Shown piece by piece: positions 2,862-55,168 of a stretch of 64,000 nucleotides of DNA (position 1 is the first letter of the stretch; each line of letters opens with the position of its first letter). A program made the position numbers and the translations under genes. The notes below the pieces were generated by a model. It did not search any database. It was not told the origin of the DNA and was given only the letters and a program-made list of their open reading frames with translations. The DNA comes from Escherichia coli (GTDB lineage Bacteria; Pseudomonadota; Gammaproteobacteria; Enterobacterales; Enterobacteriaceae): assembly GCF_051903065.1 (NCBI RefSeq), contig NZ_CP178438.1, one strand, 5' to 3'.

Positions 2862-5060
2862 ATGTCGACTCCTGACAATCACGGCAAGAAAGCCCCTCAA
2901 TTTGCTGCGTTCAAACCGCTAACCACGGTACAGAACGCCAACGACTGTTGCTGCGACGGCGCATGCTCCAGCACGCCACCTCTTTCTGAAAACGTCTCCG
3001 GCACCCGCTATAGCTGGAAAGTCAGCGGCATGGACTGCGCCGCCTGTGCGCGCAAGGTAGAAAACGCCGTGCGCCAGCTTGCAGGCGTGAATCAGGTGCA
3101 GGTGTTGTTCGCCACCGAAAAACTGGTGGTGGATGCCGACAATGACATCCGTGCCCAGGTTGAATCTGCGGTGCAAAAAGCGGGCTATTCCCTGCGCGAT
3201 GAACAGGCCGCCGAAGAACAACAAGAATCGCGCCTGAAAGAGAATCTGCCGCTGATTACGCTAATCGTGATGATGGCAATCAGCTGGGGTCTGGAGCAGT
3301 TCAATCATCCGTTCGGGCAACTGGCGTTTATCGCGACCACGCTGGTTGGGCTGTACCCGATTGCTCGTCAGGCATTACGGCTGATCAAATCCGGCAGCTA
3401 CTTCGCCATTGAAACCTTAATGAGCGTAGCTGCTATTGGTGCGCTGTTTATTGGCGCAACGGCTGAAGCTGCGATGGTGTTGCTGCTGTTTTTGATTGGT
3501 GAACGACTGGAAGGCTGGGCCGCCAGCCGCGCGCGTCAGGGCGTTAGCGCGTTGATGGCGCTGAAACCAGAAACCGCCACGCGCCTGCGTAACGGTGAGC
3601 GGGAAGAGGTGGCGATTAACAGCCTGCGCCCTGGCGATGTGATTGAAGTTGCGGCGGGCGGGCGTTTGCCTGCCGACGGTAAACTGCTCTCGCCCTTTGC
3701 CAGTTTTGATGAAAGCGCCCTGACCGGCGAATCCATTCCGGTGGAGCGCGCAACGGGCGATAAAGTCCCTGCTGGAGCCACCAGCGTAGACCGTCTGGTA
3801 ACGCTGGAAGTGCTGTCAGAACCGGGTGCCAGCGCCATTGACCGGATTCTGAAACTGATCGAAGAAGCCGAAGAGCGTCGCGCCCCCATTGAGCGGTTTA
3901 TCGACCGTTTCAGCCGTATTTATACGCCAGCAATTATGGCCGTCGCCCTGCTGGTAACGCTGGTACCGCCGCTGCTGTTTGCCGCCAGCTGGCAAGAGTG
4001 GATTTATAAAGGGCTGACGCTGCTGCTGATTGGCTGCCCATGTGCGTTAGTTATCTCCACGCCCGCGGCGATTACCTCCGGGCTGGCAGCAGCGGCACGT
4101 CGTGGGGCGTTAATTAAAGGCGGTGCGGCGCTGGAGCAGCTAGGTCGTGTTACCCAGGTGGCGTTTGATAAAACCGGTACGCTGACCGTCGGTAAACCGC
4201 GCGTTACCGCGATTCATCCGGCAACGGGTATTAGTGAATCTGAACTGCTGACACTGGCGGCGGCGGTCGAGCAAGGCGCGACGCATCCACTGGCGCAGGC
4301 CATCGTGCGCGAAGCACAGGTTGCTGCACTCGCCATTCCCGCCGCCGAATCACAGCGGGCGCTGGTCGGGTCTGGCATTGAAGCGCAGGTTAACGGTGAG
4401 CGCGTATTGATTTGCGCTGCCGGGAAACATCCCGCTGATGCATTTGCTGGTTTAATTAACGAACTGGAAAGCGCCGGGCAAACGGTAGTGCTGGTAGTAC
4501 GTAACGATGACGTGCTTGGTGTCATTGCGTTACAGGATACCCTGCGCGCCGATGCTGCAACTGCCATCAGTGAACTGAACGCGCTGGGCGTCAAAGGGGT
4601 GATCCTCACCGGCGATAATCCACGCGCAGCGGCGGCAATTGCCGGGGAGCTGGGGCTGGAGTTTAAAGCGGGCCTGTTGCCGGAAGATAAAGTCAAAGCG
4701 GTGACCGAGCTGAATCAACATGCGCCGCTGGCGATGGTCGGTGACGGTATTAACGACGCGCCAGCGATGAAAGCTGCCGCCATCGGGATTGCAATGGGCA
4801 GCGGCACAGACGTGGCGCTGGAAACCGCCGACGCAGCATTAACCCATAACCACCTGCGCGGTCTGGTGCAAATGATTGAACTGGCACGCGCCACTCACGC
4901 CAATATCCGCCAGAACATCACTATTGCGCTGGGGCTGAAAGGGATCTTCCTCGTCACCACGCTGTTAGGAATGACCGGACTATGGCTGGCGGTGCTGGCA
5001 GATACGGGTGCGACGGTGCTGGTAACGGCGAATGCGTTAAGGTTGTTGCGCAGGAAATAA
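2862..5060 (+). CDS. zntA: Zn/Cd/Pb-exporting P1B-type ATPase ZntA
   Basis: 732 aa; N-terminal metal-binding GMDCAAC, CPC transmembrane motif (IGCPCALV), DKTGTLT phosphorylation motif, GDGINDAP. Confidence 0.95.
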   Translation: MSTPDNHGKKAPQFAAFKPLTTVQNANDCCCDGACSSTPPLSENVSGTRYSWKVSGMDCAACARKVENAVRQLAGVNQVQVLFATEKLVVDADNDIRAQVESAVQKAGYSLRDEQAAEEQQESRLKENLPLITLIVMMAISWGLEQFNHPFGQLAFIATTLVGLYPIARQALRLIKSGSYFAIETLMSVAAIGALFIGATAEAAMVLLLFLIGERLEGWAASRARQGVSALMALKPETATRLRNGEREEVAINSLRPGDVIEVAAGGRLPADGKLLSPFASFDESALTGESIPVERATGDKVPAGATSVDRLVTLEVLSEPGASAIDRILKLIEEAEERRAPIERFIDRFSRIYTPAIMAVALLVTLVPPLLFAASWQEWIYKGLTLLLIGCPCALVISTPAAITSGLAAAARRGALIKGGAALEQLGRVTQVAFDKTGTLTVGKPRVTAIHPATGISESELLTLAAAVEQGATHPLAQAIVREAQVAALAIPAAESQRALVGSGIEAQVNGERVLICAAGKHPADAFAGLINELESAGQTVVLVVRNDDVLGVIALQDTLRADAATAISELNALGVKGVILTGDNPRAAAAIAGELGLEFKAGLLPEDKVKAVTELNQHAPLAMVGDGINDAPAMKAAAIGIAMGSGTDVALETADAALTHNHLRGLVQMIELARATHANIRQNITIALGLKGIFLVTTLLGMTGLWLAVLADTGATVLVTANALRLLRRK

Positions 5061-5425: not shown

Positions 5426-5530
5426 GCCGGATGCGGCGTGAACGCCTTATCCGTCCTACGTACCGGTTTCAAGCAGCAACATTGAGTGCGATCGGTCCCC
5501 TCGCCCCTCAGGGGAGAGGGTTAGGGTAAC
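5426..5530. repeat. REP/BIME-like extragenic palindromic repeats
   Basis: GCCGGATGCGGCGTGAACGCCTTATCCGTCCTACG matches the REP consensus; followed by a second palindromic unit CCCCTCAGGGGAGAGGG. Confidence 0.6.
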
Positions 5531-5545
5531 AGTCCGTGATCCACC

Positions 5546-5791
5546 TTAACCACCTTTACGAATCAAATAACGATAAGGCAGTCCATCCGTCTCTTTGGCA
5601 ACCAGTTCGTGTTCCATAAAGGTACAAAACCCAGGGATATCGCGGGTCGTCGCCGGATCGTCAGCAATAATCAGCAACGTTTCACCTGGCTGCATATTGC
5701 GCACTGTTTTGCGCACCATCATTACGGGTTCCGGGCAGCGCAGGCCAAGTGCGTCGAGTGTGTGGTCAGGGCTGGAAAAGAGATCGGTCAT
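5546..5791 (-). CDS. tusA: Sulfur carrier protein TusA
   Basis: 81 aa with CPxP motif (LRCPEPV), TusA/SirA fold signature. Confidence 0.9.
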
Positions 5792-6011
5792 TTTCTTCTC
5801 ATCACATAAAAAAACGGCGCTAGTTTACGCCCTGTGAGTCCGTAAGCAAACCAGGTTAACGATTGCGTGAAAATTAACCATTGCATTGTCAACGTAAAGC
5901 AGTATCATGCGGCGGCTCGAAAAAAGGGTAAGCACGTTATTATGTTAAGGTAACAGACGTGTCGTACGTATTGGGTTCCCTCACCCCAATGGTTAATCAA
6001 AAAGGTACAAT

Positions 6012-6677
6012 ATGAACGTTTTCTCGCAAACTCAACGCTATAAGGCGTTGTTCTGGTTATCGTTATTTCATCTGCTGGTGATCACCTCCAGTAACTATCT
6101 GGTTCAGCTTCCCGTCTCCATTTTTGGTTTCCATACCACCTGGGGCGCGTTTAGCTTTCCGTTTATCTTTCTCGCTACCGACCTGACCGTACGTATTTTT
6201 GGCGCACCGCTGGCCCGTCGTATCATCTTTGCGGTGATGATCCCGGCATTGCTGATCTCCTACGTCATCTCGTCGCTATTCTATATGGGTTCCTGGCAGG
6301 GATTCGGCGCACTCGCCCACTTCAACCTGTTTGTCGCCCGTATCGCCACCGCCAGTTTCATGGCCTACGCGCTGGGACAGATCCTCGACGTGCACGTTTT
6401 TAACCGCCTGCGTCAGAGTCGCCGCTGGTGGCTGGCACCGACAGCGTCCACACTGTTCGGTAACGTCAGCGACACGCTGGCCTTTTTCTTCATTGCCTTC
6501 TGGCGTAGCCCGGATGCCTTTATGGCTGAACACTGGATGGAAATCGCGCTGGTCGATTACTGTTTCAAAGTGTTAATCAGTATCGTTTTCTTCCTGCCAA
6601 TGTATGGCGTATTACTCAATATGCTGTTGAAAAGACTGGCAGATAAATCCGAAATCAACGCTTTGCAGGCGAGTTAA
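6012..6677 (+). CDS. yhhQ: Queuosine precursor transporter YhhQ
   Basis: 221-aa polytopic membrane protein, synteny. Confidence 0.9.
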   Translation: MNVFSQTQRYKALFWLSLFHLLVITSSNYLVQLPVSIFGFHTTWGAFSFPFIFLATDLTVRIFGAPLARRIIFAVMIPALLISYVISSLFYMGSWQGFGALAHFNLFVARIATASFMAYALGQILDVHVFNRLRQSRRWWLAPTASTLFGNVSDTLAFFFIAFWRSPDAFMAEHWMEIALVDYCFKVLISIVFFLPMYGVLLNMLLKRLADKSEINALQAS

Positions 6678-6749: not shown

Positions 6750-7307
6750 ATGCGCAATCTGGTTAAATATGTCGGAATTGGCCTGCTGGTTATGGGGCTT
6801 GCGGCCTGTGATGATAAAGACACTAACGCTACGGCGCAGGGTTCGGTCGCGGAAAGTAACGCTACCGGGAATCCCGTCAACCTGCTTGATGGCAAGTTAA
6901 GTTTCTCGCTGCCAGCGGATATGACCGACCAGAGCGGTAAGCTGGGAACGCAGGCCAATAACATGCATGTCTGGTCCGACGCCACCGGGCAGAAAGCAGT
7001 CATCGTCATCATGGGCGATGATCCGAAAGAAGATCTGGCGGTGCTGGCGAAGCGCCTGGAAGATCAGCAACGTAGCCGCGATCCGCAGCTGCAAGTAGTG
7101 ACCAACAAAGCCATTGAGCTGAAAGGTCACAAAATGCAGCAGTTAGACAGTATTATCTCCGCGAAAGGCCAGACGGCGTACTCTTCCGTTATTCTGGGTA
7201 ACGTGGGTAATCAACTGCTGACCATGCAAATTACTCTGCCAGCTGACGATCAGCAAAAAGCGCAGACCACCGCAGAAAACATCATTAATACGCTGGTTAT
7301 TCAGTAA
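6750..7307 (+). CDS. dcrB: Periplasmic lipoprotein DcrB
   Basis: Internal ATG at 6750 with AAGGAAG Shine-Dalgarno; lipobox LAAC; 185 aa. Confidence 0.85.
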
Positions 7308-54933: not shown

Positions 54934-55016
54934 GTTAGATGATGGCTATCTCACTCCAGCCAGAGCCACCAACTCAGGGCTGGAAAGTAAAAAACCGACG
55001 CAAAGTCGGTTTTTTT
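54934..55016 (+). ncRNA. agrB: agrB-like antisense sRNA regulating dinQ
   Basis: Candidate -35 TTGCAA (54899-54904) and -10 TAGCAT (54922-54927); RNA contains a 33-nt segment (54934-54966) about 90% identical to 54735-54767 inside the dinQ 5' UTR; ends at terminator ACCGAC...GTCGGTTTTTTT. Confidence 0.55.
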
Positions 55017-55168
55017 ACGTCCTGATTCAGACCTCCTTTCAAATGAATAGCCAACTCAAAATTCACACCTATTACCTTCCTCTGCACATACACATTCGTT
55101 AAACCATATATGTTTTTGACTTATCCGCTTCGAAGAGAGACACTACCTGCAACAATCAGGAGCGCAAT

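Follow-up and report, generated by a model that had tools for sequence, protein, structure and literature searches.

The yhhQ leader of an Escherichia coli chromosome contains the published preQ1-I type III riboswitch and is followed by a conserved hairpin in the coding sequence

Directly upstream of the yhhQ gene, in a 64,000-nt stretch of an E. coli chromosome (the whole of which we call the window), lies a 36-nt segment that, taken as a whole, is best explained as the known preQ1-I type III riboswitch controlling yhhQ, a reading that we hold with high confidence. Positions 5970-6005 match the 'WT Eco riboswitch 36-mer' AUUGGGUUCCCUCACCCCAAUGGUUAAUCAAAAAGG (Table S1, PMC10622847) at 36 of 36 positions with 0 mismatches, and this sequence occurs once in the window; the window coordinate equals the published WT number plus 5969 (A1-G36). 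The RNA, located upstream of yhhQ, was described by Schroeder, Kiliushik, Jenkins and Wedekind (J Biol Chem 2023; PMC10622847; PDB 8fza). A first-pass annotation of the window had tentatively likened the site to a class I preQ1 aptamer, which the published identity bears out; its remark that it knew of no preQ1 riboswitch in E. coli is answered by the 2023 structure, and its suspicion of coincidence is opposed by the exact match, by a core kept in 80 of 80 loci and by a single covariance-model match of 56.8 bits, all three far beyond chance. The element is already known and experimentally validated, and the riboswitch itself adds nothing new; the value of the present analysis is modest and lies in an annotation blind spot and an unexplained hairpin in the coding region.

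The Eco riboswitch ranks among the best-characterised small aptamers, the exact sequence found here having been studied in solution and a 30-mer variant in the crystal. The WT 36-mer takes up a single preQ1, the KD being 57.9 nM by ITC and 120 nM by SPR; for preQ0 the KD is 16 uM, and preQ1 is favoured about 130-fold (PMC10622847). The 30-mer variant, with its shortened and redesigned linker, was solved to 2.30 Å (PDB 8fza) and forms an H-type pseudoknot in which P1 is UUGGG/CCCAA and the A-tract occupies the P1 minor groove (PMC10622847). Its P2 helix joins C5979-C5980-U5981 with G6005-G6004-A6003 (U11-A28, C10-G29 and C9-G30 in crystal numbering), C5984 pairs with preQ1, and the Shine-Dalgarno (SD) base A6002 touches preQ1 directly (PMC10622847). 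In a GFPuv reporter in E. coli without queC, preQ1 lowers expression 6.1-fold (EC50 291 nM); the mutations U7C, C16U and A33C abolish the response, and C15U, also grouped with the response-abolishing mutations, weakens the EC50 311-fold (PMC10622847). Partial linker deletions improve affinity in vitro (PMC10622847). The type III subgroup had been defined earlier, with in-line probing on a Shigella dysenteriae sequence (PMC10622847, PMC11625349), and regulates yhhQ almost exclusively, in gamma-proteobacteria (PMC10622847; Pseudomonadota in PMC11625349). In a review, the Eco RNA serves as the model of 'full SD occlusion' (PMC11625349).

The features of the locus are collected in Table 1. A 280-nt query across the region returned 100% identity to O157:H7 strains, and the chromosome is O157:H7-like. 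YhhQ is the COG1738 preQ0/preQ1 transporter (PMC5372724), in agreement with the annotated role as a queuosine-precursor transporter, and has been reported in the PurR regulon (PMC5372724). The hairpin that drew attention to the site pairs ATTGGG (5970-5975) with CCCAAT (5985-5990) around a 9-nt loop, TTCCCTCAC, at 5976-5984, and is followed by the tail GGTTAATCAAAAAGGTACAAT (5991-6011) and the yhhQ ATG at 6012. A hairpin with an A-rich tail before yhhQ had been described correctly as to sequence, but it starts at 5970, not 5969, and the last U of the stem had been counted twice, serving also as the first base of the tail. From G6005 to the yhhQ ATG the spacer is 6 nt (UACAAU), and the native SD is only AAGG.

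Table 1. Coordinates of the yhhQ leader, its aptamer and neighbouring features in the window
Feature	Position	Strand	Basis or remark
zntA	2862-5060	+	RefSeq/ORF
tusA	5546-5791	-	RefSeq/ORF
tusA-yhhQ intergenic region			220 nt
PurR-operator-like box AGGTTAACGATTGCGT (putative)	5853-5868		Conserved across genera
Promoter-like hexamers TTGCAT-16 nt-TATCAT	5881-5908	+	Predicted yhhQ promoter, by inference only
Complete preQ1-I type III aptamer and expression platform	5970-6005	+	36/36 match; model R1 56.8 bits, E 6e-14
P1 5' strand AUUGGG	5970-5975	+	Only UGGG (5972-5975) conserved across species
L1 and P2 5' strand: U7, U8, C9, then C10-C11-U12	5976-5981	+	Invariant in 80/80 loci
Anti-Shine-Dalgarno C10-C11-U12, partner G36-G35-A34	5979-5981	+	Crystal structure (PMC10622847)
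L2 loop C-A-C; C5984 = WT C15, specificity base for preQ1	5982-5984	+	A and final C invariant
P1 3' strand CCCAAU; C16 = 5985	5985-5990	+	Pairing, P1 covariation; C16U abolishes regulation (PMC10622847)
Variable L3 linker GGUUAAUC, G22-C29	5991-5998	+	Same linker named in PMC10622847
A-tract A30-A34 (5999-6003) and G35-G36	5999-6005	+	AAAAAGG in 80/80 orthologue loci
SD AAGG; A6002 = A33 contacts preQ1; A6003-G6005 = P2 3' strand	6002-6005	+	Crystal (PMC10622847)
yhhQ CDS, regulated gene	6012-6677	+	221-aa ORF; RefSeq name yhhQ; Pfam PF02592 homologues
Conserved hairpin, yhhQ codons 8-13, CAACGC-UAUAAG-GCGUUG	6033-6050	+	6-7 bp; starts at +22 from AUG
dcrB, yhhS	Downstream of yhhQ

A peptide-pattern scan with one genome per species gave 80 yhhQ loci, from Enterobacteriaceae, Erwiniaceae and Serratia together with one Herbaspirillum. 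All 80 carry GGGUUCCCU(C/A)ACCCC (also written GGGTTCCCT(C/A)ACCCC), a variable linker, A5-7GG and, 5-10 nt further on, a start codon; the layout seen in the window, with the SD inside an aptamer that ends 6 nt before the yhhQ ATG, is the same in 80 of 80. Conservation in related species, the absence of which was to have told against the aptamer reading, is thus found for the core at every orthologous locus. Twenty aptamer columns are invariant in a 77-sequence alignment, and the four-fold sites of yhhQ show a median identity of 56% to the window, with 0 of 46 strictly comparable columns invariant. The invariance of the core is far beyond chance, synonymous sites being saturated in the same species.

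Within P1, the pairs between GGG 5973-5975 and CCC 5985-5987 are invariant in 80 of 80 loci, the fourth pair is standard in 79, the fifth in 42 and the sixth in 22; the 6-bp stem originally noted is complete in the window, but only 4 of its pairs are conserved across species. The loop UUCCCUCAC (5976-5984) places UU right after the P1 5' strand and is pyrimidine at 8 of 9 positions, with 8 of 9 invariant. Its first L2 base (5982) varies: most loci have C there, L025, L066 and L093 have A, and L096 has U; A5983 and C5984, which form the AC motif before the P1 3' strand, are invariant. The linker differs among species: the stretch from the P1 core to the A-tract spans 4-11 nt in the majority of them, and four from Klebsiella/Raoultella have 46-132 nt. 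The A-tract (A5 at 5999-6003) is invariant among the 80 orthologue loci, and the distant homologue L095 is an exception with AAAAGG. For P2, the complement of CCU 5979-5981 is AGG 6003-6005, with pairing in 99.5% of cells; neither side varies, hence there is no covariation signal. An intrinsic terminator at 5970-5990 was ruled out: GGUUAAUCAAAAA follows the hairpin, and a terminator scan made no call there.

Covariation, which had been proposed as a check, gave a divided answer. Within the Enterobacterales sample none was measurable, the core being invariant and the test consequently without power; because P2 and the ligand-contacting bases do not vary, the comparative data speak neither for nor against the pseudoknot, which rests on the published crystal. 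We reached further out by a representative-protein search with contig look-ups. Homologues with 53-59% protein identity retain the motif and show compensatory changes in P1, GAGG/CCUC in L093 and GGCGG/CCGCC in L096. With the distant homologues added, 4 of the 6 P1 pairs show double changes, and none of 500 shuffles attained the P1 covariation score of 0.168. Six homologues with 40-51% identity lacked both a type III motif and an Rfam PreQ1 match.

Towards closer relatives, a match was obtained in 5,425 E. coli genomes; each of them has no less than 80% of the 71-nt region covered and an identity of 95% or higher (99% or higher in 4,817), and in aligned E. coli strains every variable position lies 5' of the aptamer. 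Practically all E. coli genomes carry the riboswitch. At the other end of the sample, a contig assigned to the betaproteobacterium Herbaspirillum chlorophenolicum (NZ_LFLT01000001.1; L066) has a yhhQ 83% identical to the enterobacterial protein and a type III riboswitch with the loop UUCCCUAAC; horizontal transfer or contamination could account for both.

Standard annotation does not see the element. With Rfam 15, the whole window at the gathering threshold and 501-nt and 55-nt slices at E <= 10 gave no PreQ1 match; none of all 4227 families matched the site, including preQ1-II (RF01054) and preQ1-III (RF02680), and no PreQ1 match was obtained at 29 other loci (20 orthologous and 9 more distant), 23 of which have the motif. 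RefSeq/PGAP records of E. coli carry no riboswitch feature at this site. As a positive control, we took five metagenomic loci that fit a B. subtilis-like type II pattern and scanned four; RF00522, whose gathering threshold is 39 bits, scored them at 44.2-49.1 bits. In viral contigs, a type II pattern of this kind found nothing. The RF00522 consensus, GGUUCGuAAaCc.UCCC ... AUAAAAAACUAAGG, is type I/II-like, and type III has a 9-nt loop and no CUA before GG. RF00522 has a blind spot where type III is concerned, and the Rfam silence marks a limit on the side of the model, not of the element. A missing PreQ1 match had been named in the first-pass annotation as grounds for refutation, and formally the match is missing; because the type II controls scored 44-49 bits, we reject this as counter-evidence and regard it as a false negative for type III. 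The lesson for annotation is that the Rfam PreQ1 model misses the type III subgroup and that RefSeq E. coli records carry no feature in its place: since RF00522 is blind to type III, a pipeline or reader relying on cmscan only would wrongly dismiss a validated riboswitch.

We built our own type III model, R1, from 48 non-Escherichia leaders. On the 64-kb window it gave one full-length match, at 5970-6014 (56.8 bits, E 6e-14); on the type II loci it made no detection. The next match in the window, at 14.2 bits (E 0.083), is 7113-7136 and covers only the RBS-like AAAGGUCACAAAAUG. This segment, inside dcrB, reads AAAGGTCACAAAATG and resembles the SD-spacer-ATG of yhhQ in other genera; the partial match is most likely a coincidence.

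Set beside the known preQ1 systems, the window shares with the Eco preQ1-I type III riboswitch (PMC10622847) an aptamer identical over 36 nt, the same linker GGUUAAUC and the same downstream gene, yhhQ; relative to the published constructs, it has the native SD AAGG, the UACAAU spacer and an Escherichia-specific upstream leader of about 55 nt. With class I type II, known from Thermoanaerobacter tengcongensis and the Bacillus subtilis queC leader and forming the RF00522 core, it has in common an H-type pseudoknot, a short P1 and an A-rich L3 in the P1 minor groove; in both types an A-preceded cytosine is the specificity base and one ligand is bound per RNA. Type III differs from type II in its shorter, pyrimidine-rich 9-nt loop UUCCCUCAC and 3-nt L2, and in a longer, variable linker before the A-tract, with no CUA between A-tract and GG. 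Unlike in type II, the whole SD is buried and contacts the ligand; the B. subtilis type II element acts by transcription termination (PMC11625349). Class I type I (Carnobacterium antarcticum; also Haemophilus and Neisseria) shares UU after the P1 5' strand and translational control through an SD-adjacent pseudoknot (PMC11625349); it differs in binding two stacked preQ1, in having UC rather than AC at the specificity position and in occluding the SD only indirectly (PMC11625349).

We weighed two readings in which the leader would not be a preQ1 switch. That the stem-loop arose by chance and has no function is a negligible prospect. Hairpins of this kind are common, the + strand of the window holding 168 perfect 6-bp hairpins with loops of 4-10 nt against 96-117 in shuffles, and folding energy is unremarkable as well: the 71-nt context of the site gives a fold no more stable than those of its shuffles (z = +0.98), and the minimum free energy (MFE) of a 117-nt fold is likewise not beyond shuffles. 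The bare hairpin is thus not beyond chance; an unexceptional MFE is, however, to be expected of a ligand-stabilised pseudoknot, for which single-sequence folding is uninformative. What refutes a chance origin is conservation, with the core invariant in 80 of 80 orthologous loci against saturated synonymous sites and P1 covarying in the distant homologues; the sequence is, moreover, that of a characterised riboswitch. Conservation by itself is silent on what binds, and together with the lack of a match to the Rfam PreQ1 models this leaves some room for a ligand-independent element, such as a basal-translation structure or a site for a protein or small RNA, whose likeness to a preQ1 aptamer would be incidental. 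We consider such an element highly improbable, since the published ITC, SPR, crystal and reporter data already contradict it: the identical RNA binds preQ1 1:1 at nanomolar affinity, and single-base changes at ligand-contacting positions abolish binding and regulation (PMC10622847). The motif also precedes the gene of a preQ0/preQ1 transporter.

Downstream of the riboswitch, a promoter and terminator scan made three terminator-like calls, one of which lies inside the yhhQ coding sequence and corresponds to the hairpin at 6033-6050. In 81 sequences this hairpin has the consensus CAGCGC-N6-GCG(C/T)TG, with six standard pairs in 66, five in 13 and four in 2. Paired cells make up 96.3%, compared with 11-58% when the partners are slid, and 499 of 500 shuffles have a lower covariation score. 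The codon for Ala12 is GCG in 79 of 79 cases, while in the 18 other conserved alanine columns the most frequent codon accounts for just 37-86%. In Pluralibacter gergoviae and the Herbaspirillum contig, Arg9His (CGC to CAC) accompanies Ala12Val (GCG to GTG), turning a G-C pair into A-U, and Shimwellia has a one-sided intermediate of this change. At the third pair, A-U, G-U and G-C all occur but A-C never does, the G-U form fitting the sense RNA strand; the codons of the loop vary. To judge by these substitutions, the hairpin is conserved at the RNA level and coding constraint alone is insufficient to account for it, because the Ala12 GCG is invariant and the paired Arg-to-His and Ala-to-Val changes keep the base pair. 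It was ruled out as a general intrinsic terminator, the downstream U-run not being conserved. Possibly, though we regard it as doubtful, the regulatory unit is larger than the published 36-mer and the hairpin a functional part of the expression platform. If so, it could act as a pause or folding checkpoint, or help to decide whether Rho gains access and what becomes of the mRNA after a block of translation.

In the native setting, abundant preQ1 in the cell would lock AAGG (6002-6005) into the pseudoknot. With this site, 6 nt before the ATG at 6012, closed to the 30S subunit, less YhhQ transporter would be made, giving negative feedback on the salvage of queuosine precursors. Ligand binding, fold and mutational sensitivity have been shown in the literature; control of chromosomal yhhQ is what we infer, because the reporter carried a C-G closing pair in P1, an SD strengthened to AAGGAGG and a foreign spacer, and the words 'native' and 'chromosom' are absent from the text of PMC10622847. 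It is also conceivable that the riboswitch is real but that its main native output differs from simple SD occlusion, with Rho-dependent termination, pausing or mRNA decay setting in early in the coding sequence after translation is blocked, and the codon 8-13 hairpin perhaps contributing. Several features lend themselves to this: the RNA-level conserved hairpin begins at +22, just beyond the expected footprint of the initiating 30S subunit; a distant homologue with low GC content that has the riboswitch (L093) forms an unrelated 7-bp stem at +21 to +41; and the native AAGG is weaker than the SD of the reporter. We nevertheless think this output unlikely: the hairpin may be unrelated to the riboswitch and does not act as a general intrinsic terminator, and in the reporter SD sequestration alone accounts for the 6-fold repression (PMC10622847). 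SD occlusion by the preQ1-bound pseudoknot remains our preferred account of the native switch.

Mobile elements have settled in and beside the aptamer. L3 is 132 nt long in K. oxytoca (L055 555-686) and in a Raoultella MAG (L057 555-686). This long linker folds into an extended hairpin, of -51.5 kcal/mol in K. oxytoca, whose base would join the 3' end of P1 and the A-tract, and the K. oxytoca insert shows 2-3 mismatches to the ERIC primer sequences of Versalovic et al. 1991. Shorter remnants occupy L3 in K. pneumoniae (46 nt, L045 641-686) and R. terrigena (73 nt, L038 614-686). The L3 insertions are ERIC-type palindromic repeats or their remnants, placed between the P1 3' strand and the A-tract; in several Pantoea, an ERIC lies directly 5' of the aptamer. 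Their presence in Klebsiella and Raoultella suggests that the aptamer tolerates a structured insertion of 46-132 nt; alternatively, the switch may have been lost there. E. coli MSB1_8B has a group II intron of about 2.27 kb that encodes ltrA (L003 2678-4947) between positions corresponding to 5968 and 5969 of the window, in yhhQ orientation; only T5969 separates it from A5970, and the aptamer is intact. Together, the coding-region hairpin and these mobile elements could matter for how the switch works in its native mRNA.

Upstream of the aptamer, a block TTGCA(A/T)-N16-TAT(C/G/T)AT stands at a constant position in the majority of orthologous loci and recurs across genera; a consensus promoter scan of the region called no promoter, at 5881-5908 included. 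The aptamer starts about 15-20 nt after the -10 hexamer in most genera. Escherichia has about 50 extra leader nucleotides between the -10 hexamer and the aptamer (5915-5965), including a hairpin at 5932-5962. Just 3' of tusA, positions 5500-5530 hold a G-rich, partly palindromic sequence, CTCGCCCCTCAGGGGAGAGGGTTAGGGTAA, suggestive of a terminator or of a repeated intergenic element. Elsewhere in the window, Rfam gave gathering-level matches to the AgrB antisense RNA (54935-55018, + strand, 107.7 bits) and to the shuA/chuA 5' UTR thermoregulator (63768-63799, - strand, 60.1 bits).
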